Of a DNA stretch of 38,215 bases, positions 1-38,215 are shown in pieces. The DNA is from a virus (lineage: Duplodnaviria > Heunggongvirae > Uroviricota > Caudoviricetes): the IMG/VR virus record IMGVR_UViG_2671180710_000023, positions 1 through 38,215 of that record, one strand, 5' to 3'. How positions within the stretch are numbered: the first letter of the stretch is position 1; each line of letters begins with the position of its first letter. Under the pieces are notes generated by a model. That model was given only the letters and a program-made list of their open reading frames with translations, did not search any database and was not told where the DNA came from. Made by a program: the position numbers and the translations under genes.

Positions 1-522
1 TCTGCACTGCCCGTTGGTGTGCCTGTTCCGTGGCCCTCAGCCACACCGCCAGCAGGGTGGCTGAAATGTAACGGAGCAGCATTTTCTTCTGAAATGTACC
101 CCAATCTGGCAAAGGCTTATCCTACAAATAAACTACCGGATCTACGGGGTGAATTTATCCGTGGCTGGGATGACGGACGTGGCGTGGATGCGGGGCGAGC
201 CTTGCTAAGGCTTCAGGATGACTCTTTTGAAGCGCACAGGCATGAGTCCTTTTTTTATGCGGGTATTTCACGCAATGAAATCCCATTAAAAAATCTTCCA
301 AGTTCAGACGAGATGCTGACTTTAAGTTCCACAACTAATGCCTTGTCACCGGACGGTATTGATGCCACCAATTCGTTAATTGGTAATGACGATTACAACT
401 GTCTTATCGAAGGGAATAAAAATAACAAACGAACAGCAACGGGTCTAAGTACCAGTATTGTCGGCGCAACTGAAACCCGCCCCCGTAACATTGCGTTTAA
501 TTACATCGTAAGGGCGGCATAG
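1..522 (+). CDS. Silent tail-fibre C-terminal (receptor-binding tip) cassette 1, 5-prime end cut by window edge
   Basis: Frame 1 from position 1 encodes SALPVGVPVPWPSATPPAGWLKCNGAAFSSEMYP...LPDLRGEFIRGWDDGRG (tail-collar-like block) and ends ETRPRNIAFNYIVRAA; same conserved ends as the expressed fibre C-terminus; no RBS or ATG of its own. Confidence 0.6.
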   Translation, partial: SALPVGVPVPWPSATPPAGWLKCNGAAFSSEMYPNLAKAYPTNKLPDLRGEFIRGWDDGRGVDAGRALLRLQDDSFEAHRHESFFYAGISRNEIPLKNLPSSDEMLTLSSTTNALSPDGIDATNSLIGNDDYNCLIEGNKNNKRTATGLSTSIVGATETRPRNIAFNYIVRAA

Positions 523-541
523 AAACGTTGGTTTGGGGGAA
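516..541 (+). other. hix/gix-like 26-bp crossover site (GGCATAGAAACG-TT-GGTTTGGGGGAA) at cassette 1/2 junction
   Basis: Reverse complement TTCCCCCAAACC-AA-CGTTTCTATGCC resembles Gin/Hin/Cin-family sites (12-2-12 layout with AAACC...GGTTT core); inverted relative to the site at 3054-3079. Confidence 0.6.
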
Positions 542-964
542 GGCTCAGCGCTGCCCGTTGGTGTGCCCGTTCCGTGGCCCTCAGCCACACCGCCAGCAGG
601 GTGGCTGAAATGTAACGGCGCAGCATTTTCTTCTGAAATGTACCCCAATCTGGCAAAGGCTTATCCTACAAATAAATTACCGGATTTACGGGGTGAGTTT
701 ATTCGCGGCTGGGATGACGGGCGGGGAATTGATTCAGGACGCACTCTACTTTCGTTACAGGGCGATATGTTTAAATCGCACAGTCATTACTTCCGTGAAA
801 TATGGGGTGCAAATGGACCAGATGGAACTGGTGGACCGTACATTGTCGGGGCGGATACAAACGGTTCGAGAATAAATTTAGGCACTATAGAAACCAGTGC
901 ACCTGGTGGTTCAGAAACCCGTCCCCGTAACATTGCATTTAATTACATCGTAAGAGCCGTATGA
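533..964 (+). CDS. Silent tail-fibre C-terminal cassette 2
   Basis: ORF opens in the crossover site with GEGSALPVGVPVPWP..., has a unique middle and ends ETRPRNIAFNYIVRAV; apparent TTG start lies inside the site, consistent with a fusion-only module. Confidence 0.6.
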   Translation: MGEGSALPVGVPVPWPSATPPAGWLKCNGAAFSSEMYPNLAKAYPTNKLPDLRGEFIRGWDDGRGIDSGRTLLSLQGDMFKSHSHYFREIWGANGPDGTGGPYIVGADTNGSRINLGTIETSAPGGSETRPRNIAFNYIVRAV

Positions 965-983
965 AAACGTTGGTTTGGGGGAA
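958..983 (+). other. hix/gix-like crossover site (CGTATGAAAACG-TT-GGTTTGGGGGAA) at cassette 2/3 junction
   Basis: Same half-site GGTTTGGGGGAA and central TT as the other cassette sites. Confidence 0.6.
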
Positions 984-1448
984 GGCTCTGCACTGCCCGT
1001 TGGTGTGCCTGTTCCGTGGCCCTCAGCCACACCGCCAGCAGGGTGGCTGAAATGTAACGGAGCAGCATTTTCTTCTGAAATGTACCCCAAACTGGCAAAG
1101 GCTTACCCCGCGAATAAATTACCGGATTTACGGGGTGAGTTTATTCGTGGCTGGGATGACGGGCGCGGGATTGATCCTGGTCGCCAGTTGCTTGGGTGGC
1201 AGAAAGGTACTTTGGTTGGTGGTAGAGATGACAATGATGCCGCAGTTGATATTTCATATATGAGTAACGGAAATAGTATTGATTACGGTGGCGATAAAAC
1301 ATTTTCAACGAATTACCGGAGTGATTATTTATGGTATGCAATTCTGGGTAACGTCACTGGTCGTGCCAAAGCTGCTTTAAGTGGGTCCTTTTTTAATGTA
1401 ACTCGTCCACGCAACATCGCCTTTAACTACATTGTGAGAGCAGCATAG
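975..1448 (+). CDS. Silent tail-fibre C-terminal cassette 3
   Basis: Conserved N-terminal tail-collar block, unique middle, conserved end VTRPRNIAFNYIVRAA. Confidence 0.6.
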   Translation: MGEGSALPVGVPVPWPSATPPAGWLKCNGAAFSSEMYPKLAKAYPANKLPDLRGEFIRGWDDGRGIDPGRQLLGWQKGTLVGGRDDNDAAVDISYMSNGNSIDYGGDKTFSTNYRSDYLWYAILGNVTGRAKAALSGSFFNVTRPRNIAFNYIVRAA

Positions 1449-1467
1449 AAACGTTGGTTTGGGGGAA
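1442..1467 (+). other. hix/gix-like crossover site (AGCATAGAAACG-TT-GGTTTGGGGGAA) at cassette 3/4 junction
   Basis: Near-identical to the site at 516-541. Confidence 0.6.
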
Positions 1468-1962
1468 GGCTCTGCACTGCCCGTTGGTGTGCCCGTTCCG
1501 TGGCCCTCAGCCACACCGCCAGCAGGGTGGCTGAAATGTAACGGCGCAGCATTTTCTTCTGAAATGTACCCCAAACTGGCAAAAGCCTACCCCGCGAATA
1601 AATTACCGGATTTACGGGGTGAGTTTATTCGTGGCTGGGATGACGGGCGGGGAATTGATTCAGGGCGTTCCTTGCTTAATGCACAATCACATTCGGTTAT
1701 AGATCATATTCACTATATGGAGTTATGGACTGGTGAAGGGCTTGCCGCAAATAGCACCCGTGCAGGAACAAACCCTGGTATACTGGCTACATACGGTGAT
1801 GGCGGGATTGTTAAAACAGATGAGTCAGGTGTAAAAGTTCCATCTTCACTACGTGCTATTGGCACTCGTGGTGTTTATAGATTAGGTGCCAACGGAGGGA
1901 ATACAGGAACGGAAAACCGCCCCCGTAATATTGCGTTTAACTATATTGTAAGGGCTACTTAA
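1459..1962 (+). CDS. Silent tail-fibre C-terminal cassette 4 (the only cassette followed by its own Tfa gene)
   Basis: Conserved N-terminal block, unique middle, end ENRPRNIAFNYIVRAT; its TAA stop overlaps the ATG of the downstream tfa (TAATGA). Confidence 0.6.
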   Translation: MGEGSALPVGVPVPWPSATPPAGWLKCNGAAFSSEMYPKLAKAYPANKLPDLRGEFIRGWDDGRGIDSGRSLLNAQSHSVIDHIHYMELWTGEGLAANSTRAGTNPGILATYGDGGIVKTDESGVKVPSSLRAIGTRGVYRLGANGGNTGTENRPRNIAFNYIVRAT

Positions 1963-2579
1963 TGAATAATGCTGCTGCAGTACTTGATCAGAATGGTATC
2001 GCTATAACTGCAGGCGATATTACCGTTTATAACTACGATGCTGAAAACCGTGAATATCTCTCTGCCACTGTTGAGTATCTCGCTTATGGTGTTGGAATTC
2101 CGGCTCACTCATGCATTGACGCGCCACCAGAAAAACGCCCCGGCTTCGCTGTCTGTCGTGATACCGACCAGAACATCTGGAAATATGTTCCAGACCACAG
2201 AGGAGAAACGGTTTACAGCACAGAGAATGGTAACGCTGTGCAAATCACACGACCGGGAGATTACCCTCCTGATACGACGGTGAAACAGCCAGCTACTATC
2301 TATGATGTCTGGGATGGTGAGACCTGGGTGACAGATGCGGGACGACAGCACGCAGCAGAACTGGAAGCTGCCGGAGCGCATCGTCAGCAACTTGAGGAAC
2401 AGGCAATGGCATCTGTTGAGCTTATAAATCTCAAACTACGAGCCGGACGCCGATTGACGCCCCAGGAGACGGAAAAACTAAACGCCGTGCTTGATTTCAT
2501 AGATGTGCTTAATGCGACTGACATCAGCACTGCACCGGATATCAACTGGCCGGAAATGCCTCTGGCAGCAGCCAGTTGA
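1962..2579 (+). CDS. Tail fibre assembly chaperone (Tfa; Mu U / lambda Tfa family)
   Basis: C-terminal VLDFIDVLNATDISTAPDINWPEMP matches the Tfa-family signature (lambda Tfa ...TSTAPDIEWP...); HRGETVY motif; coupled to cassette 4; convergent with the expressed fibre gene. Confidence 0.75.
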   Translation: MNNAAAVLDQNGIAITAGDITVYNYDAENREYLSATVEYLAYGVGIPAHSCIDAPPEKRPGFAVCRDTDQNIWKYVPDHRGETVYSTENGNAVQITRPGDYPPDTTVKQPATIYDVWDGETWVTDAGRQHAAELEAAGAHRQQLEEQAMASVELINLKLRAGRRLTPQETEKLNAVLDFIDVLNATDISTAPDINWPEMPLAAAS

Positions 2580-2585
2580 ATATAA

Positions 2586-3554
2586 CTAAGCCGCCCTCAC
2601 GATATAGTTAAATGCAATATTGCGGGGGCGGGTTTCACTACCACCTGTGTTACCAATACTTCCTCGTGAATGAAGCGTTGGTGATGGAGTCAAACTCCCT
2701 CCTGTATTTGTGGCATCAAGCCCCCTGCCTTGTGTATATGTTTTTTTGAAAATCGTAGCCAACTCCCATTCATCTTTTGTGTCATATCCATCGTTAGCTA
2801 CAACAATATGGCGGTGTTTTTCCAACATCCCGTTTTGAATGCTCAATAAAGCGCGTGCCGCATCAATTCCTCGCCCATCATCCCAGCCACGGATAAATTC
2901 TCCGCGTAAATCCGGTAATTTATTCGCGGGGTAGGCTTTTGCCAGTTTGGGGTACATTTCAGAAGAAAATGCTGCACCGTTACATTTCAGCCAGCCCGTT
3001 GGTGGTGTTGCTAAGGGCCACGGAACGGGCACACCAACGGGCAGTGCAGAGCCTTCTCCCAAACCAAGGTTTTTGACAAACAGCGCAGGCTCAGGAATAT
3101 CTGCGCCGTTCTGGTCTTTAGCCAGCTTTTCCGCCAGCTTGTTCAGTACCGTAGTCGCAAAGTTTGGATCATTACCGAGAGCGTCAGCCAGCTCTTTAAG
3201 CGTATCCAGTGTCTCAGGGGCGCTGCCTGCAAGTGCCGCAAGTGCTTTGGACACAAACTCCGTCGTCGCCAGCTTTTTGCTGTTATCACCATTTGCAGGT
3301 GTAGGTGCTGTTGGTGTGCCGGTGAATGTCGGACTGGCTTTCGTCGCGTACTGGGTATGCGGGTCAACTGCCGCGATATGTGCAGCCAGGTCTGTTCCGC
3401 TTTTTTCGACCTTCTGTTTGAGGTATGACGTTCGGCTGGCCAGTTGTTTAGCCTGGCGGTTAGAAATTCCGTCAGGTCCGCCCAGAACGGGGTCAGAGAC
3501 CTCAATCTGGTAGATGCCGTCTTCCCACTGCGGGGTTTCGGGTAGATTTGCCAT
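2586..3554 (-). CDS. Tail fibre protein (constant N-terminal part fused to the currently expressed variable C-terminal tip)
   Basis: 322 aa; N-terminal constant region; from residue ~163 (LGLGEGSALPVGVPVPWP...) shares the cassette conserved block and ends ETRPRNIAFNYIVRAA; sits after baseplate genes in Mu S position. Confidence 0.8.
   Translation of the reverse strand: MANLPETPQWEDGIYQIEVSDPVLGGPDGISNRQAKQLASRTSYLKQKVEKSGTDLAAHIAAVDPHTQYATKASPTFTGTPTAPTPANGDNSKKLATTEFVSKALAALAGSAPETLDTLKELADALGNDPNFATTVLNKLAEKLAKDQNGADIPEPALFVKNLGLGEGSALPVGVPVPWPLATPPTGWLKCNGAAFSSEMYPKLAKAYPANKLPDLRGEFIRGWDDGRGIDAARALLSIQNGMLEKHRHIVVANDGYDTKDEWELATIFKKTYTQGRGLDATNTGGSLTPSPTLHSRGSIGNTGGSETRPRNIAFNYIVRAA
3054..3079 (+). 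other. hix/gix-like crossover site inside expressed tail fibre gene (TTCTCCCAAACC-AA-GGTTTTTGACAA)
   Basis: At the constant/variable junction (codons FVKNLGLGEG); inverted repeat of cassette sites; resembles gix TTCCTGTAAACCGAGGTTTTGGATAA as recalled. Confidence 0.6.
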
Positions 3555-5569: not shown

Positions 5570-5625
5570 GGAGGCAGTATTGCCCCCGGGAAGTAAGCGC
5601 CGATATTAAAGGCGTTTAAGAAGGT

Positions 5626-11363: not shown

Positions 11364-11461
11364 GATCGTGCTCCTGTGTAAGTTCAGGGCAGTATGTCTG
11401 GCGGTGGACGTAACGGATATTAAAGGAGATTAAGAAGAAAGGGGCCGGAGCCCCTGTGATA

Positions 11462-17278: not shown

Positions 17279-17492
17279 TTTGCTGTCCCGCGTTATGTTG
17301 TCGGAGACAGTTTGTGAGAAATGCAGGCCCGGCGATTTTAATCTGCTTTAGAAAACATCAGGGGAGAAGGACAGGGAAAGCAATGCGGTGAACCGGAGGC
17401 GGTTATAAAACAGAGGCTGTAAAGCCTTTATAAAGGTAATACAGCCCCTCATTCGCTGGCAATGATAAATCACCCGCCTGAAGAGAGAAAAC

Positions 17493-24123: not shown

Positions 24124-24474
24124 TTAAAGCCCCATCGCAACAGCCAGGCAGACCGCTGCAACAATCAGTGCACGGCGGATTAACGCAGCAGAAAACACCA
24201 GGTGAAGGCCGGTCTGTACCGGGAAACGCCCTTCAGCCATCAGCCTGTCGTCATGTTTCAGGTACTGACCGGGACGGGCTTTGGGGAAGAGCGAACGGTC
24301 AAGCCAGTAACCCAGCACTGCTGCCAGCGTGATGAGTGCCAGCTTGTAGATCACAACAGGCAGCTGCTGTGGTGAGACCAGAGCGATGGTGCCCAGCAAC
24401 AGCACTGAGGTCAGCAGCCAGCCGCTGAGGCGAGGTTTTTTAACAGGGGGAATGAATTTTTTCAGGTTTTTCAT
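24124..24474 (-). CDS. Holin-like membrane protein (first gene of late/lysis transcript)
   Basis: ATG at 24474 with GAGGAG RBS; 2-3 predicted TM helices; immediately upstream of endolysin. Confidence 0.55.
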   Translation of the reverse strand: MKNLKKFIPPVKKPRLSGWLLTSVLLLGTIALVSPQQLPVVIYKLALITLAAVLGYWLDRSLFPKARPGQYLKHDDRLMAEGRFPVQTGLHLVFSAALIRRALIVAAVCLAVAMGL

Positions 24475-24604
24475 GTGTGTCTCCTCGTTTGGTGGAGACA
24501 GCATCACAAATACAGGGCGCAAAGGATTTTAAAGCGCGTTAAGAGAGCCGAGGATACGGGATGTGCAGGATAAACGATGAATTATTCACAGAGGAGAATA
24601 CGAT

Positions 24605-25081
24605 ATGACGCACACACTGAATCCGGTCATCACTGTCACTGTGTCAGGTCCTGTGGGCAGCGGTAAAAGTTACGTACTGGCGCGGATAGAAGAGATGGTG
24701 AAACAGGAACTCGGAAACAGCGTCATTGTCGATGCTGCTGACGTGGAGAATGAGCGCCGTATGAATGGCGAAGATCTGACGACCTGGCAGAAGCCACGGG
24801 GTGGCACAGTGATCAGGCTAGAGGAATACACGGGACAGGGCCTGTTGTCATACGGCGAGGAGCGTATCTGTCGGACGAATGAGCTGCTGGATGTTATATG
24901 CCCCACGGGCCGGCAACCCTGGATACTGCCCGATGCACTGCATGCCACCATTGCGGCACTGATGACAGTTTACGATCAGGAGCTGCTCATGAAGGAGTTA
25001 CGTAAACTCACCGGTCAGCCAACAGAATGTTGTTCGTCTCCGAAGTACGGCAAACAGGAAAACGCCCCGGATAATCCTTAA
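24605..25081 (+). CDS. Small P-loop NTPase / nucleotide-kinase-like protein (accessory gene)
   Basis: Strong RBS (GAGGAG); Walker A GPVGSGKS at residues 15-22 and Walker-B-like VIVDAAD ~20 residues later; orientation opposite to flanking operons. Confidence 0.5.
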   Translation: MTHTLNPVITVTVSGPVGSGKSYVLARIEEMVKQELGNSVIVDAADVENERRMNGEDLTTWQKPRGGTVIRLEEYTGQGLLSYGEERICRTNELLDVICPTGRQPWILPDALHATIAALMTVYDQELLMKELRKLTGQPTECCSSPKYGKQENAPDNP

Positions 25082-25100
25082 GATACCTCCTGAGCAGAAA

Positions 25101-25116
25101 CAGCCCTGAAGGGCTG
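25101..25116 (-). terminator. Possible weak terminator hairpin between convergent genes
   Basis: CAGCCC-TGAA-GGGCTG stem-loop; on the minus strand followed by TTTCTGCT, just after the stop of the 196-aa gene; no clean U-run. Confidence 0.3.
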
Positions 25117-25118
25117 CA

Positions 25119-25709
25119 CTAAAAAAAGAAGTGTATTATTGCCCAAACAGCTATAACGATGATTCCCAGCCCAAGAGCCGATTCTAACTTATCTTTGGCA
25201 GTCATTTTTACTGTTGTAGCGGGCGCAGGTAAGTCTTGCTGCTGTGGATTTTCTGTTAGTTGTTTACGAGAAGAAACATCGCCCCTGTTAGTTTGCTTCA
25301 TGTTGATTACAGATGCGTTATGGGCATTATCAGCAGCAATTGACTGAAGTTTTACAAAAGTTTTTGAATCTGTTTTAGCCAGAAGTAACCTATTTCCCGT
25401 AAACATTGCCTTAAAAGTGATAGTTTTTTTCGTCTTGTCCGCCGCACCAAGCAAACCTCCAATGACCAACCCTGCACCACCAAAGATTAATCCACCAAGC
25501 AAACCTGCGCCTGCCGCCTTACCTATACGGCTTTCCTCTTCACTATCCGCAAGTTCAATCGATAAAAGCTCTTCTTTCAGATTTAATACAATATTTTCAG
25601 GAAAGCCTTGTTTTGGTTTTTTGGCAAACACGATGGTACCGAACCCCATGCTTGCCCACCCTTTAGGAAAACTTCCTGCGATAACCTGAATCCCTGCCAT
25701 GTTCATCAC
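25119..25709 (-). CDS. Glycine-zipper membrane protein (repressor operon, distal gene)
   Basis: AAGGTGA RBS; GKAAGAGLLGGLIFGGAGLVIGGLLGAA glycine-zipper hydrophobic segment plus C-terminal TM (LGLGIIVIAVWAIIHFFF). Confidence 0.55.
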   Translation of the reverse strand: MMNMAGIQVIAGSFPKGWASMGFGTIVFAKKPKQGFPENIVLNLKEELLSIELADSEEESRIGKAAGAGLLGGLIFGGAGLVIGGLLGAADKTKKTITFKAMFTGNRLLLAKTDSKTFVKLQSIAADNAHNASVINMKQTNRGDVSSRKQLTENPQQQDLPAPATTVKMTAKDKLESALGLGIIVIAVWAIIHFFF

Positions 25710-25790
25710 CTTTTACATTAAAATTTCAGAACGCAGCATGATGCCGCCTTTGTCTTTTTTCTGATCCCATGGTAATTCAGCTGTTATTTT

Positions 25791-26777
25791 CTATTTAAGA
25801 ATAAAACGGTACTTACTGTCAGGAGTGCTTTGCTGATCAAGTAGCAGTGAACGACATGGAGCAGTCAAAACCCGAGCATAACTACCATCAGGGCTTATGT
25901 TAATGTAACAAACCTTGCCCTTAACACTATAATTTTCGGGGACGGATGCCTTTGCTGATACAGTAAATTTAAGGGTATGCCAGCCCGTTTTTTGCTTGTA
26001 GCTTGAAACCGAATGGAAATCATCTGAGTACTTATTTAACCCTGGAAACATGCTGCGCAGTGCGGGGATGGAATCTTCTATTATTTTATCGTTGGTTTTA
26101 ATGTTAAAAACGCTGGTTTCAGTAGAAGCTACTGCTTTGGCATTTCCCCATTTACCAGCGAACACAATCATTCCCACGAAAAATATTGCTACAAGAACTA
26201 ACACTCCCCCCAACACTACTACATGAGGCTTCCGGCTTCTGGTTGGTACAGTTGCGACTGATTTTGCACCGCTTTCCGATGGAGGTGATAGAGTTTTACT
26301 CTCATCACGAATATTCAGCAGATCATCAAAATAACCAAACACAGCCTGCAACTGCTCTTTGTCTAGGCCTTTAAGATGGGTTGTACCGAAATGCTTCAGA
26401 CAGTATCTGTCACGGTCAAGACGATACCCAGGGTCAGTAAGCGCCATTATTTTGCTGACCAGAAGATTACAGTCCTTCATATTCTGGATCTGTTGTGCAT
26501 ATCTCTGAAGGATCTCAACCGCACCATGATAATCAGCCGCAGTCATTTCATTAACTGTTTTGGTATTAAGTTTCGTGTGGATCGTCATCCATAGCTCGCG
26601 CTTACTTTCCCCCAGATCAACCAATTCATCCATCAATCTGTGTAAATCGCGTTTTTGCAGCAACGAAATTGGTTGCTGGGCCGAAGGAAGTATGTCAGCA
26701 GAATAGTTATGAATGGTAACATCACCGCTGACAACGTTACCCACATCCCCGTTAACTGTTTGCTTCTCTTTACTCAT
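25791..26777 (-). CDS. Single-pass membrane protein (repressor operon, translationally coupled to repressor)
   Basis: ATGA overlap with repressor stop; ~180-aa cytoplasmic N-domain, TM helix (VVVLGGVLVLVAIFFVGMIVFAG), ~120-aa C-domain; AT-rich codon usage unlike structural genes. Confidence 0.55.
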   Translation of the reverse strand: MSKEKQTVNGDVGNVVSGDVTIHNYSADILPSAQQPISLLQKRDLHRLMDELVDLGESKRELWMTIHTKLNTKTVNEMTAADYHGAVEILQRYAQQIQNMKDCNLLVSKIMALTDPGYRLDRDRYCLKHFGTTHLKGLDKEQLQAVFGYFDDLLNIRDESKTLSPPSESGAKSVATVPTRSRKPHVVVLGGVLVLVAIFFVGMIVFAGKWGNAKAVASTETSVFNIKTNDKIIEDSIPALRSMFPGLNKYSDDFHSVSSYKQKTGWHTLKFTVSAKASVPENYSVKGKVCYINISPDGSYARVLTAPCRSLLLDQQSTPDSKYRFILK

Positions 26778-34749: not shown

Positions 34750-35191
34750 ACAACATCTTATCCAGCTCATTCATATTGCCCGTAATGAACTGGGTATGGA
34801 TGAAGACACCTACCGCCAGATGTTACAGGGGCTGACCGGTAAAGCCTCAACCAAAGGAATGGATACCACACAACTAAACTGCGTGCTGGAATCCATGAAA
34901 AGGAAAGGCTTTCGCGTTAAGCCTGCCGGAAAAGCCAGCTCCGGTTTACCGCTGGATAACCATCCGCAGTCCAGGAAAATCCGTGCGCTATGGCTTGAAA
35001 TGGCTGCTGCCGGCATTGTTCGTGACCGTTCAGAAAATGCATTAGCGCGGTGGATCAAGCGGGAAACGGGCATCAGCGCCCTGCGCTGGCTCAGTACTGA
35101 ACAGGCAAGCAGTGTTATTGAGAAACTGAAGAAGTGGCAGCACAGAGCTGCGGGAGTAAAACATGAGCGACCTGAATCAGTTTCGAAGTAA
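34739..35191 (+). CDS. GemA-like regulatory protein (Mu gp16 family, DUF1018-like)
   Basis: ATG 34739 with AAGGAG RBS; ~150 aa basic protein immediately upstream of mor. Confidence 0.5.
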   Translation: MMTKQHLIQLIHIARNELGMDEDTYRQMLQGLTGKASTKGMDTTQLNCVLESMKRKGFRVKPAGKASSGLPLDNHPQSRKIRALWLEMAAAGIVRDRSENALARWIKRETGISALRWLSTEQASSVIEKLKKWQHRAAGVKHERPESVSK

Positions 35192-35561
35192 AGGGCCGGA
35201 ACTCCTGGTGGAGCTGGCACAGCATACCTCTGAGACCGTTCGCGAGATTATTGATATTGAGCCCGCAATTGCCGACCAGATTGGTCAGGCCGTCGCGAAC
35301 CGAATGATGCAGGTCTGGGGCGGGCAAAACGTTTATTTCCCGATGGGCATGGTATGGAAGGTCAGTCAGCGCGACCGGGAAATCTTCAGGGAGTTTAACG
35401 GACGCAACCACCACGAACTGGCCCGCAAGTTTGGTGTTTCGCTTCAGTGGGTCTACAGCGTGGTTAAGCGGGTCAGAAAAGAAGAACTGGATCGGATGCA
35501 GGGCAGGTTGTTTGATGAAGATCTGCCAGAGGAGACGAAAGACGTTAACAAATCCAGATAA
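35163..35561 (+). CDS. mor: Mor-family late transcription activator
   Basis: 132 aa; C-terminal HTH region ELARKFGVSLQWVYSVVKRVRKEE; last gene of early/middle operon, followed by terminator. Confidence 0.7.
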   Translation: MSDLNQFRSKGPELLVELAQHTSETVREIIDIEPAIADQIGQAVANRMMQVWGGQNVYFPMGMVWKVSQRDREIFREFNGRNHHELARKFGVSLQWVYSVVKRVRKEELDRMQGRLFDEDLPEETKDVNKSR

Positions 35562-35606
35562 TTCCTGCTTGTTAAAGTCCTTTCAAAAATCTCCTTATTG
35601 TATAAG

Positions 35607-35637
35607 AGCACGGTAGACCCTTTACCGTGCTTTTTTT
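35607..35637 (+). terminator. Rho-independent terminator after mor
   Basis: Perfect 9-bp stem AGCACGGTA / TACCGTGCT with 7-nt loop followed by TTTTTT; 45 bp downstream of mor stop. Confidence 0.75.
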
Positions 35638-35675
35638 ATGCTCTCTATGTAATATTCAGGATGCAGGGAGAAAAT

Positions 35676-36308
35676 ATGTTTGACGTTTCGTTATTAAATC
35701 TGCCATGGGCAACACTGGTGACCCTGACCAGTGGCTATATTGGGTATTTTATTGCGAATGTGGGGCTGAAGGATCACCACAAACCCATTGAGGTGACTTT
35801 TTCTTCGCTGATTTTTGGCCTGACAGCAATGATGGCTTACCAGGCTGTTATGTGGGCAGGTCTGAATGCCTGGCTGGCAACACCCCCAGCACTTCTGTGT
35901 GCCGTTACATGCGGTGCGTGGTGGCGCAGGTACGGTCGCAAATGGATGTACAGATTACTGTGGAATAATGATATTTCATGGTCTGACGATACCAGCTCAG
36001 CATGGCAGGCAATGTTTGATCAAACAGGCTTCAGCGTCACCGAGGTCAGAGTGATTCTTCGCGATGGTTCCGGTATGATGTCACGGCTGCCAGGGAACTT
36101 TGAAGAGTGGCCTAACGGTCCGTTTACCCTGGGAAATAAAGGCGATATGGTTCTTTACGTCACGCACAGCAGCCCTTCAGGAAGTAACGAATGGGAAGAG
36201 TATAAAGGCGTGGTTGATAAGTACTGGGGAGCTCTGGCAACCTATATTCCAGCAGATCAGATTGCCAGAGTGGAGATCAGGCGCGTTCGTGCAACGAACG
36301 ATGAATGA
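35676..36308 (+). CDS. 3-TM membrane protein with C-terminal soluble domain (accessory gene at prophage right end)
   Basis: ATG 35676 with AGGGAGA RBS (the upstream TTG-initiated extension in the ORF track runs through the terminator); three hydrophobic helices then ~110-aa hydrophilic domain. Confidence 0.55.
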   Translation: MFDVSLLNLPWATLVTLTSGYIGYFIANVGLKDHHKPIEVTFSSLIFGLTAMMAYQAVMWAGLNAWLATPPALLCAVTCGAWWRRYGRKWMYRLLWNNDISWSDDTSSAWQAMFDQTGFSVTEVRVILRDGSGMMSRLPGNFEEWPNGPFTLGNKGDMVLYVTHSSPSGSNEWEEYKGVVDKYWGALATYIPADQIARVEIRRVRATNDE

Positions 36309-36479
36309 TGTTTATTTTTTCCCTGGAGCAGGAGCTGCCGGCATAGTGGTTTTATTGGCAGAGGAAGACGATTCTCCTTTTCTACCGGAATCGCGCTCGA
36401 ACGTCACAATGTGCTTGCTTTTGGGCTTTTCTGAGTAATCCAGGCTGTCATGCTTATTGTTTTGAGTAGTCATTGGAAT

Positions 36480-36669
36480 CATCCTTTTTGTTACGGGTCA
36501 TGTTTCAGCAAACTCGATTCTAAGTTGCCAGGAAGGATGATTTCAATGCCCGACTTATCTATCGTATAGCGGAAAAGAATTTCAGTTCTGTTCACCAGAA
36601 CCCATGTTAACCCACTCCAATTCGTTATTTATCTCACGGATCCCCCTTCATTTATCTCATGTCTGATCA
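36480..36669. repeat. Right-end terminal region with repeated TTTCA-containing motifs (putative transposase-binding sites) ending ...TGATCA
   Basis: Recurrent CATGTTTCAG / GATTTCAATG / AATTTCAGTT / TTATTTATCTCA / TCATTTATCTCA motifs in the last ~190 bp before the host junction; Mu R-end sites contain TTTCA cores. Confidence 0.45.
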
Positions 36670-38215
36670 GATGACGCCGCAGAATGCGCGTATCTGGTAT
36701 ATCAGCCCGAAAGAGCCGCACAATAAAACGGCTTATTTTGTCGATGCGCCGTATCAGGTCGATAAAATCAGCGCACAAACTTTCGCCGACTGGCAGAAAA
36801 AAGCCGCCGACATTGCGCTCTCTTTGCCAGAGCTTAACCCCTATATTCCTGACGATTTCTCGCTGATTAAGTCAGAGAAGAAATATGACCATCCAGAGCT
36901 GATTGTTGATGAGTCGAATCTGCGTGTGGTGTATGCGCCAAGCCGTTATTTTTCCAGCGAACCCAAAGCTGATGTCAGCCTGATTTTGCGTAATCCGAAA
37001 GCCATGGACAGCGCCCGCAATCAGGTGATGTTTGCGCTCAATGATTATCTCGCAGGGCTGGCGCTTGATCAGTTAAGCAACCAGGCGTCGGTTGGTGGCA
37101 TAAGTTTTTCCACCAACGCTAACAACGGCCTTATGGTTAATGCTAATGGTTACACCCAGCGTCTGCCGCAGCTGTTCCAGGCATTGCTGGAGGGCTACTT
37201 TAGCTATACCGCCACGGAAGATCAGCTTGAGCAGGCAAAGTCCTGGTATAACCAGATGATGGATTCCGCAGAAAAGGGCAAAGCGTTCGAGCAGGCGATT
37301 ATGCCCGCGCAGATGCTCTCGCAAGTGCCGTACTTCTCGCGAGATGAACGGCGCAAAATTTTGCCCTCCATTACGTTGAAAGAGGTGCTGGCCTATCGCG
37401 ACGCCTTAAAATCAGGGGCTCGACCAGAGTTTATGGTTATTGGCAACATGACCGAAGCCCAGGCAACAACGCTGGCACGCGATGTGCAAAAACAGTTGGG
37501 CGCTGATGGTTCAGAGTGGTGTCGTAACAAAGATGTCGTGGTCGATAAAAAACAATCCGTCATCTTTGAAAAAGCCGGTAACAGCACCGACTCCGCACTG
37601 GCAGCGGTATTTGTACCGACTGGCTACGATGAATACACCAGCTCAGCCTATAGCTCACTGTTGGGGCAGATCGTACAGCCGTGGTTCTACAATCAGTTGC
37701 GTACCGAAGAACAGTTGGGCTATGCCGTGTTTGCATTCCCAATGAGCGTGGGGCGTCAGTGGGGCATGGGCTTCCTTTTGCAAAGCAATGATAAACAGCC
37801 TTCATTCTTGTGGGAGCGTTACAAGGCGTTTTTCCCAACCGCAGAGGCAAAATTGCGGGCGATGAAGCCAGAAGAGTTTGCGCAAATCCAGCAGGCGGTA
37901 ATTACCCAGATGCTGCAGGCACCGCAAACGCTCGGCGAAGAAGCATCGAAGTTAAGTAAAGATTTCGATCGCGGCAATATGCGCTTCGATTCGCGTGATA
38001 AAATCGTGGCCCAGATTAAACTGCTGACGCCGCAAAAACTGGCCGATTTCTTCCATCAGGCGGTAGTCGAGCCGCAAGGCATGGCTATCCTGTCGCAGAT
38101 TTCCGGCAGCCAGAATGGGAAAGCCGAATATGTACACCCTGAAGGCTGGAAAGTGTGGGAGAACGTCAGCGCGTTGCAGCAAACAATGCCCCTGATGAGT
38201 GAAAAGAATGAGTGA
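36659..38215 (+). CDS. ptrA: Host protease III (pitrilysin) gene, 3-prime portion truncated by prophage insertion; first ~3 codons of the ORF are phage-end sequence
   Basis: Translation from TPQNARIWYISPKEPHNKTAYFVDAPYQ... to ...QTMPLMSEKNE matches my recollection of the C-terminal half of E. coli PtrA (M16 family); homology begins abruptly at about 36670. Confidence 0.7.
   Translation: MSDQMTPQNARIWYISPKEPHNKTAYFVDAPYQVDKISAQTFADWQKKAADIALSLPELNPYIPDDFSLIKSEKKYDHPELIVDESNLRVVYAPSRYFSSEPKADVSLILRNPKAMDSARNQVMFALNDYLAGLALDQLSNQASVGGISFSTNANNGLMVNANGYTQRLPQLFQALLEGYFSYTATEDQLEQAKSWYNQMMDSAEKGKAFEQAIMPAQMLSQVPYFSRDERRKILPSITLKEVLAYRDALKSGARPEFMVIGNMTEAQATTLARDVQKQLGADGSEWCRNKDVVVDKKQSVIFEKAGNSTDSALAAVFVPTGYDEYTSSAYSSLLGQIVQPWFYNQLRTEEQLGYAVFAFPMSVGRQWGMGFLLQSNDKQPSFLWERYKAFFPTAEAKLRAMKPEEFAQIQQAVITQMLQAPQTLGEEASKLSKDFDRGNMRFDSRDKIVAQIKLLTPQKLADFFHQAVVEPQGMAILSQISGSQNGKAEYVHPEGWKVWENVSALQQTMPLMSEKNE

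Follow-up and report, generated by a model that had tools for sequence, protein, structure and literature searches.

A two-gene accessory module with a candidate Mor-dependent promoter at the right end of a BcepMu-like prophage

What is a membrane protein gene doing beyond the terminator that closes the early operon of a Mu-like prophage, and when would the phage express it? The question is raised by the right end of a 38,215-nucleotide (nt) stretch of viral DNA (IMG/VR record IMGVR_UViG_2671180710_000023, positions 1 to 38,215; henceforth referred to as the window), in which the activator gene mor is followed by a hairpin with a T-run, by a gene for a 210-amino-acid (aa) protein with three transmembrane (TM) helices and by a convergent gene for a 53-aa protein. 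An earlier reading of the window, made from the sequence alone (henceforth the sequence-only reading), had described the membrane gene as a terminator-insulated, moron-like gene, of the kind that often serves lysogenic conversion or superinfection exclusion. We find that the feature is genuine and that the description was right, but that its interpretation as an insulated moron expressed in the lysogen is only partly supported. The two genes form a patchily distributed module between mor and the right end of a BcepMu-like prophage. In our best explanation, to which we assign a probability of about 0.45 as a whole, this would be a Mor-driven cargo module that is locked by convergent transcription and that encodes a channel-like effector braked by its partner.

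The two-gene module and its setting

Some 36.7 kb of the window is a transposable, BcepMu-like (Mu-like) prophage. Its late genes, for a putative holin, an SLT endolysin, terminase, head, tail, baseplate and fibres, lie on the minus strand at ~24.5-2.6 kb, and its early genes, for helix-turn-helix proteins, DDE transposase, ExeA-family ATPase, Gam, DUF2786, GemA and Mor, on the plus strand from 27.4 kb; this is the layout of BcepMu. Near-identical copies of the prophage were found by megablast at many different chromosomal sites of Escherichia coli in more than 100 genomes, all matches ending at window position 36669, and in strain C51 a CGGCG(C) duplication is present at both prophage ends. 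Because the matches stop at 36669 and the C51 ends are duplicated, the membrane gene region can be placed at the very right-hand end of a prophage of the Mu type. The host flank in the window encodes pitrilysin residues 447-959, ptrA being interrupted by the prophage insertion. The features of the right end are, in window coordinates:

35163..35561, plus strand: mor (Mor/C-family late activator), final gene of the early operon; Pfam PF08765, E = 1e-43
35572..35585, plus strand: candidate Mor-binding box TTAA-AGTCCT-TTCA, half-sites 6 bp apart; motif match 11 nt after the mor stop
35607..35637, plus strand: intrinsic terminator of the early transcript; 9-bp stem, 7-nt loop, T7
35665..35670, plus strand: Shine-Dalgarno sequence AGGGAG, 5 nt before the ATG, read from the sequence
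35676..36308, plus strand: coding sequence of the 210-aa protein, three TM helices and an Sm/SH3-like C-terminal domain; WP_000460689.1; PHROG 12870
36312..36473, minus strand: gene for the 53-aa hydrophilic protein with a C-terminal PxxPxKK tail; WP_001571575.1; PHROG 15726
36517..36546, minus strand: sigma-70-like promoter of the small gene, TTGAAA-18-TAGAAT, directed inward from the phage end
36584..36602, minus strand: terminator-like hairpin (consensus match only), just inside the phage end and upstream of the small-gene promoter
36660..36669, no strand: prophage right end (...TGTCTGATCA), from megablast match ends and differing host flanks, followed by host ptrA

The strong intrinsic terminator that had been proposed after mor was borne out. 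It comprises AGCACGGTA (35607-35615), the loop GACCCTT, TACCGTGCT (35623-35631) and a T-run, of seven residues in our analysis, ending at 35637. The 9-bp stem is perfect and can extend to 14 pairs; the folding energy of the hairpin, -17.8 kcal/mol (z = -6.5), was reached by 0 of 200 shuffles, and the window contains the exact dyad a single time, where 0 copies would be expected. A hairpin with a T-run is found at the equivalent place after mor in seven of the 11 types of related locus; its stems are of four unrelated sequences with compensatory arms, each folding at -13 to -19 kcal/mol, and it has decayed only in endosymbiont loci. A hairpin that keeps its position in seven of the 11 types with four different stems is beyond chance, and it is the structure of this G+C-rich stem-loop and U-tract, rather than its sequence, that is kept in relatives. 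The intrinsic terminator closing the early operon is real. An Rfam scan returned sub-threshold noise only. The sequence-only reading had let the feature run from 35607 to 36308, and its elements are indeed present there, but 35607 is the start of the terminator and not of the coding sequence, whose ATG lies at 35676.

The gene itself also proved to be as described, with its own ribosome-binding site and a product of 210 aa that has three N-terminal TM helices and a C-terminal domain of roughly 100 aa. RefSeq calls the identical coding sequence, and the homologues all begin at the equivalent Met. Hydropathy places hydrophobic segments at residues ~9-31, 40-62 and 63-83, and an AlphaFold2 model (AF2; mean confidence score, pLDDT, of 86) has helices at 11-27, 37-60 and 65-97 and a beta domain at 119-205. 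From the KDHHK loop and an RRYGRKWMYR cluster the positive-inside rule predicts an outward N-terminus and a cytoplasmic C-terminal domain. The best structural neighbours of this domain are Sm/LSm proteins; searches of the PDB and BFVD with Foldseek yielded no more than weak matches, Sm-like or of a generic three-TM, holin-like kind, and a profile search of PDB sequences revealed no sequence or profile similarity to a solved structure.

No known family had been recognised from the sequence alone, and none was found for the 210-aa protein in Pfam, NCBIfam or PADLOC, the only curated match being to PHROG 12870 (unknown function); in PADLOC, likewise, no defence or superinfection-exclusion family matched either protein of the pair. 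A word-indexed search returned 72 homologues at 34-99% identity (55-99% in Enterobacterales, 34-47% in alphaproteobacteria), and an exhaustive profile search 522 clusters at 50% identity, nearly all of 200-215 aa and aligned end to end; longer members carry no informative fused domains. Conservation is highest from TM1 to the first cytoplasmic loop (LPWxTLxTLASGYxGYxxAxxGxRxHHKxxDxxF), TM1 being almost invariant and rich in small residues, and the C-terminal domain keeps the motifs SxSD..SAW, GPxxLGxxGDxxxYVTH and WGxxxTYIPAxxI...R. The 210-aa protein is a member of a large, uncharacterised and mostly phage-borne family of constant full-length architecture.

The membrane gene had been taken for the last gene before the prophage end, a claim that fails: the 53-aa gene lies on the minus strand between it and the end at 36669, its stop 3 nt from that of the membrane gene. 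In the window it has an AAGGA Shine-Dalgarno sequence, and the same promoter hexamers stand in the same position in Serratia, Citrobacter and Symbiopectobacterium loci. A small hydrophilic open reading frame (ORF) that converges with, abuts or overlaps the membrane gene (gap -19 to +8 nt) was seen in nearly every locus examined, in gamma- and alphaproteobacteria alike, including Afipia, Bradyrhizobium, Devosia, Rhizobiaceae and metagenomic contigs (a metagenome scan yielded only 12 loci). Common to the small proteins are an N-terminal MT/MS, an aromatic-S/T-x-P-K/T motif and a C-terminus rich in proline, in most cases with PxxPxKK(K) at its end. Since the Lys and Pro codons of the tail motif vary synonymously and the pairwise ratio of nonsynonymous to synonymous substitution (dN/dS) is 0.09-0.25, the small ORF is a real gene under purifying selection. 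That its KKK tail is mere antisense of a membrane-gene terminator T-run can be ruled out, as the alphaproteobacterial copies use AAG and the Pro codons vary synonymously. In the curated libraries (Pfam, NCBIfam and PADLOC) the 53-aa protein had no match. Four loci (L014, L015, L048 and L053) have an intact membrane gene and no small gene. In the Afipia-type loci (L017, L020 and L072-L074), a ~180-aa gene of unknown function lies 10 nt upstream of the small gene on the same strand, so that the antisense side may there be a two-gene operon.

The distribution of the module supports the accessory status that the sequence-only reading had given the membrane gene. It is absent from BcepMu, in which mor is the last gene, and from PhiKM, a Bcepmuvirus of E. 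coli in which mor (~94% identity as far as codon ~120) leads straight into the phage end; the same module-less junction of mor and phage end is present in 532 of 5426 complete E. coli genomes. The module itself was found in 114-122 E. coli genomes, or roughly one in five related E. coli prophages; strains C51 and 83972 have it with an identity of at least 98.5%. Its G+C content is low (49.8% in the membrane gene and 43% downstream, compared to 54% for the phage). In Enterobacterales it always follows GemA-Mor. In alphaproteobacteria no Mu genes are near it; there it sits between structural genes of other prophages, with which the membrane gene is co-oriented, beside serine recombinases or occasionally in islands free of phage genes. 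The patchy presence in E. coli, the low G+C content and the differing positions in alphaproteobacterial prophages together indicate an accessory, horizontally mobile module.

The terminal ~145 bp of the phage (36516-36660), which include the small-gene promoter, are also found at 88-90% identity in ~190 other E. coli genomes that lack the module. Many of these matches are on ~190-kb plasmids; one example (L080) is a relic beside a degraded transposase. The hairpin at 36584-36602 is possibly an insulator against read-in from the host.

Candidate Mor boxes and predicted transcription of the module

The window Mor has 31% identity with Mu Mor and 35% with Mu C. In Mu, Mor binds a pair of 5-bp inverted repeats that flank a G/C-rich spacer of 6 bp, the centre of the site being at -43.5 (PMC4390567; PMC4287176), and in the Mu sequence we read GTAA-AGCCGG-TTAA with TATCCT at positions 39-44. 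In the window, intergenic gaps of the late arm share the element TTAA-N6-TTAA-(A/T)ATC, from which the pattern YTAA-N6-TTMA-WA was derived; it matches six times in the window against 0.27 expected. Four of the matches fall in gaps that precede late operons, and 35 bp downstream of each stands a weak -10 element:

5604..5619, minus strand: box TTAA-N6-TTAA, baseplate genes
11418..11433, minus strand: box TTAA-N6-TTAA, tail genes
17336..17351, minus strand: box TTAA-N6-TTAA, head genes
24527..24542, minus strand: box TTAA-N6-TTAA, lysis genes

The -10 elements (CAATAC, CATACT, CAAACT and GATGCT) occupy positions 38-43 from the box start. In this prophage group the four boxes probably mark the late promoters that depend on Mor. 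The sole plus-strand match in the window, at 35572-35587, is the one after mor, and strain C51 has the same five sites (four late and one post-mor). No recognisable similar box was found downstream of mor in BcepMu.

The post-mor box has no -35 hexamer and shows the same layout as the four late boxes and as the GTAA-AGCCGG-TTAA of Mu, with one half-site imperfect. At the right distance from it stands a -10-like CACGGT (35609-35614), in which A2 and T6 are present and which is otherwise a poor match; the register of box to -10 is common to this site, the four late promoters and Pm of Mu. A Mor-dependent start is accordingly placed by this spacing near 35622, in the loop of the terminator hairpin. 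Relatives have CAATAT, CAACAT, TATCAT, TATTAT or AACAAT in the same register. In Citrobacter and Salmonella loci a perfect TTAA-N6-TTAA is combined with CAAYAT, and the predicted start falls in the 5' arm of the hairpin; in Symbiopectobacterium and Arsenophonus loci ATAA-N6-TTAA is followed by the T-run and then by TATCAT or TATTAT, in a Mu-like order; and in Serratia-type loci with an extra ORF the order is box, AACAAT and hairpin. In all these variants a Mor-driven RNA would miss the full terminator hairpin, which read-through from the early promoter would meet. The hairpin dyad itself was also considered as the Mor site and was ruled out, as it occurs once and its sequence is not kept, the conserved element being the upstream TTAA-N6-TTMA box.

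A strict promoter scan found no plus-strand sigma-70 promoter upstream of the membrane gene, and relatives have no conserved constitutive promoter there. An extended -10-like element, TGtAATATT, lies at 35648-35656 between the T-run and the Shine-Dalgarno sequence and is not conserved in relatives. Promoter and terminator scans of the alphaproteobacterial loci were uninformative. No intrinsic terminator was found between the two genes of the module, nor on the plus strand after 36308 up to 37000; the transcripts of the membrane and small genes must therefore overlap.

We propose that Mor binds the box 11 nt after its own gene and drives the membrane gene. With the geometry of Mu (box centre at -43.5) transcription would start in the hairpin loop: transcripts from the early promoter would terminate, whereas Mor-driven transcripts, lacking the 5' arm because their predicted start lies inside the loop, would escape termination and read into the membrane gene. 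In position and regulation the gene would then correspond to the middle operon of Mu, and it would be expressed alongside the late genes during lytic growth. Of the two genes, only the small one would be transcribed in the lysogen, and its RNA, with no terminator between them, would run antisense into the membrane gene. This convergent transcription would hold the membrane gene off until Mor overrides it. That the module is a Mor-dependent unit of the Mu middle operon type, silenced in the lysogen by convergent transcription of the small gene, is the part of the explanation that we hold to be rather better than an even bet, judging from the position and conservation of the motifs.

Several observations weigh against it, and against the explanation as a whole. 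One half-site of the post-mor box (TTCA) is degenerate, and the -10 CACGGT has no more than C, A and T in common with the CAxACT of the late promoters. The pattern was defined after four of its six sites had been seen, which makes the chance estimate partly circular; we calculate the a-priori chance of one such box in the 115-nt spacer at ~0.01-0.03. In the window phage itself, the TGtAATATT that follows the T-run could allow the gene to be expressed constitutively. A phage activator cannot account for the expression of those relatives that lie in islands devoid of phage genes, and the four loci that lack the small gene indicate that the partner is dispensable at least in some settings.

Four further observations concern the boxes and their transcripts. 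The sixth Mor-box-like site lies at 25363-25378 on the minus strand, in a variable accessory region. The leaders behind the lysis and head boxes (~24474-24510 and ~17280-17320, minus strand) contain the inverted repeats GTCTCC...GGAGAC and CTGTCTCCG...CGGGACAG, which would sequester the Shine-Dalgarno sequence of the first late gene and suggest translational control of late genes. In a Serratia/Arsenophonus-type subgroup (L008 7690-7977, L048, L049 and L051) an extra ORF of ~95 aa separates the membrane gene from the box and terminator, which makes the post-mor unit one of two plus-strand genes. Finally, the predicted Mor-driven transcript of the membrane gene, meeting no terminator, could extend into the host ptrA fragment, where (36659-38215) the reading frame of an ATG within the phage end continues through the 3' half of ptrA as an ORF of 518 aa.

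Possible function of the module and rival explanations

For the function of the protein pair we have a preferred guess, which is the weakest step of the explanation. The membrane protein would sit in the inner membrane with its N-terminus out and its C-terminus in, and its Sm/SH3-like cytoplasmic domain would oligomerise it into a channel-like or gate-like assembly, which might act on the membrane late in infection, in lysis timing, depolarisation or exclusion. The small cytoplasmic partner would bind the Sm/SH3-like domain through its proline-rich basic PxxPxK tail and so serve as a brake. We arrive at an oligomeric, channel-like inner-membrane effector from the architecture, the small-residue face of the invariant TM1, the ring habit of Sm folds and the ligand-like tail of the partner. 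A still wider generalisation, which we regard as doubtful, would make the pair a hitherto unrecognised, widespread two-component phage membrane system, in which a three-TM protein that forms a ring through its Sm/SH3-like domain and a small disordered partner docking by its PxxPxK tail are under a convergent-transcription switch. Phages would thereby gain a novel means of controlling the inner membrane of the host, a viroporin-like channel for exclusion, abortive infection (Abi) or lysis timing.

According to the moron interpretation of the sequence-only reading, the gene would have its own promoter in the lysogen and its inner-membrane product would block DNA entry by superinfecting phages or otherwise convert the host. 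Membrane exclusion proteins of prophages are well-known precedents, and the patchy accessory distribution, a G+C content below that of the phage, the predicted inner-membrane location and the occurrence of relatives in unrelated prophages and small islands are all as this interpretation would have it; accessory status and terminator have stood. The weak point is the promoter. The strict scan found none on the plus strand, the possible extended -10 TGtAATATT is not kept in relatives whereas the layout of Mor box and terminator is, and the conserved sigma-70 promoter belongs to the antisense gene. A terminator downstream of the gene, as a moron would have, was not found up to 37000, and no known exclusion or defence family matched. 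Because a Mor-type box precedes the terminator and no constitutive promoter is conserved, expression in the lysogen, and hence conversion or exclusion, is not favoured, and we consider a moron of this kind unlikely. Expression only late in lytic growth had been named by the sequence-only reading itself as evidence that would count against it, and the predicted Mor dependence puts it at risk on that score. Superinfection exclusion as such is a possible function.

The convergent arrangement also invites comparison with toxin-antitoxin (TA) and Abi pairs, in which the membrane protein would be a pore toxin and the small, disordered, constitutively made protein and/or the antisense RNA its labile antidote, whose loss on infection by a foreign phage would kill the cell. 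The module is a tight mobile two-gene unit across distant bacteria, its small partner is hydrophilic, of low complexity and endowed with its own strong promoter, and it is found in islands beside TA-like genes such as DUF4411 and M78. Its convergent 3' ends overlap, as they also do in type I TA systems of prophages. However, the four loci in which the membrane gene is intact without the small gene do not fit an antidote, and, together with the convergent rather than operonic order of the genes, they set the module apart from type II TA systems. Apart from sporadic weak ones, there were no PADLOC or toxin-family matches, a protein of 210 aa far exceeds type I toxins, and the Mor wiring would poison the phage's own host in every lytic cycle; this makes a TA or Abi pair a poor candidate. 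An accessory lysis function, with the membrane protein as holin, antiholin or timing factor and the small protein as a cytoplasmic antiholin-like inhibitor, would agree with the predicted co-regulation with the late and lysis operons, and small cytoplasmic antiholins exist, T4 RIII being one. The three-TM N-terminus also weakly resembles class I/III holins in BFVD, but these similarities are non-significant (E above 0.02). The membrane gene does not lie beside the endolysin in the lysis cassette (putative holin, SLT endolysin and lipoprotein) but ~11 kb away on the other arm, and 532 related prophages lyse without the module, which leaves a lysis accessory more improbable still. Each of the rivals is thus in conflict with at least one observation: exclusion with the lack of a conserved constitutive promoter, TA or Abi with the dispensable partner, and lysis with the location outside the cassette.

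If the Mor-driven module is as we propose, it would be a clear natural case of phage cargo that was brought into the Mor regulon by a promoter lying within the early terminator and that is kept locked by convergent transcription. The family of 522 clusters at 50% identity, mostly phage-borne and with a conserved small partner, is uncharacterised, and the role of an inner-membrane protein with a cytoplasmic Sm/SH3-like domain that would be expressed late could represent a new class among the interactions of phages with host membranes. The Mor-box consensus further provides an annotation of late promoters for the Bcepmuvirus prophages of E. coli, found in more than 10% of its complete genomes.

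Other regions of the window and comparison with known systems

Two further regions of the window stand out. At 19-2579 (plus strand), tandem ORFs with tail-collar/receptor-binding domains and a tail-fibre assembly protein stand opposite the tail fibre gene at 2586-3554 (minus strand), which looks like a multi-cassette invertible host-range segment; its invertase, if any, would lie outside the window. Between the lysis cassette and the repressor, a variable accessory region at 24605-26777 encodes a 158-aa P-loop-like protein (plus strand) and proteins of 196 and 328 aa (minus strand), the latter weakly Flk-like. None of these had a convincing PADLOC match, and strain C51 has different genes there, including a Dam methylase.

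Among protein families, the nearest to the membrane protein is Pfam DUF6338 (PF19865; ~200 aa), which gave weak matches to 20 of 35 members of the window protein's family (best E = 1.4e-6). The window protein itself did not match the DUF6338 hidden Markov model at E <= 1, and, given only the weak matches of its relatives, DUF6338 is a distant relative at most. It has no known function and is mentioned in passing in one paper; literature searches on DUF6338, the RefSeq accessions and the PHROG identifiers found nothing relevant, and papers on BcepMu-like E. coli phages were not informative on the module. Among ring proteins of the Sm/LSm/Hfq type, the Sm/LSm proteins, with rings of 6-7 subunits, are the closest structural neighbours of the C-terminal domain. 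The fold as a whole, with three helices, the last of which runs into the cytoplasm, and then a bent beta domain, presumably resembles the MscS core and short NfeD/YuaF-type proteins; this is a lead only, and no MscS or NfeD structure was among the top structural matches of the 210-aa protein.

Among genetic systems, the type I TA loci txpA/RatA and bsrG/SR4 of B. subtilis, like the module, combine a prophage membrane gene with a convergent transcript that overlaps its 3' end. Unlike in these, the small gene here is protein-coding and under purifying selection, the 210-aa protein has a folded cytoplasmic domain and the partner is absent in some loci. The module shares with morons (lom and bor of lambda, gp15 of HK97) a patchy distribution, a deviant base composition, a bounding terminator and a membrane product, and its family is inserted, as morons are, between structural genes in other prophages. 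It differs from them in its best candidate promoter, which would depend on an activator, in the lack of a canonical terminator behind the membrane gene and in having two convergent genes. The likeness to mom/com of Mu, also a rightmost accessory gene with activation by the Mor/C family and an extra layer of control, is one of logic only: Mom is a DNA-modification enzyme under the control of Dam/OxyR and Com, whereas here a membrane protein is paired with a convergent small gene.

The closest parallel is the middle unit of Mu (Pm, gp18, gp19, gp20 and C). In the Mu record Pm lies directly after mor, overlapping a predicted terminator, and is followed by genes for small membrane proteins; the first genes of the middle operon encode small, non-essential membrane proteins of unknown function (PMC9239132). 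Both units thus lie directly downstream of mor, with a terminator-like hairpin that overlaps a Mor-dependent promoter, which in the window is a predicted one, and with a Mor site, in the window a candidate one, made up of two short A/T-rich half-sites around a 6-bp spacer. Their proteins share no sequence similarity. The Mu unit includes a second activator, C; the window prophage has none, and Mor therefore appears to drive its late operons directly. The start of Pm lies after the hairpin, whereas the start predicted here lies inside it. The convergent small gene is present here and absent in Mu, and whereas the Mu middle unit points into the late region, the module described here points out of the genome end.

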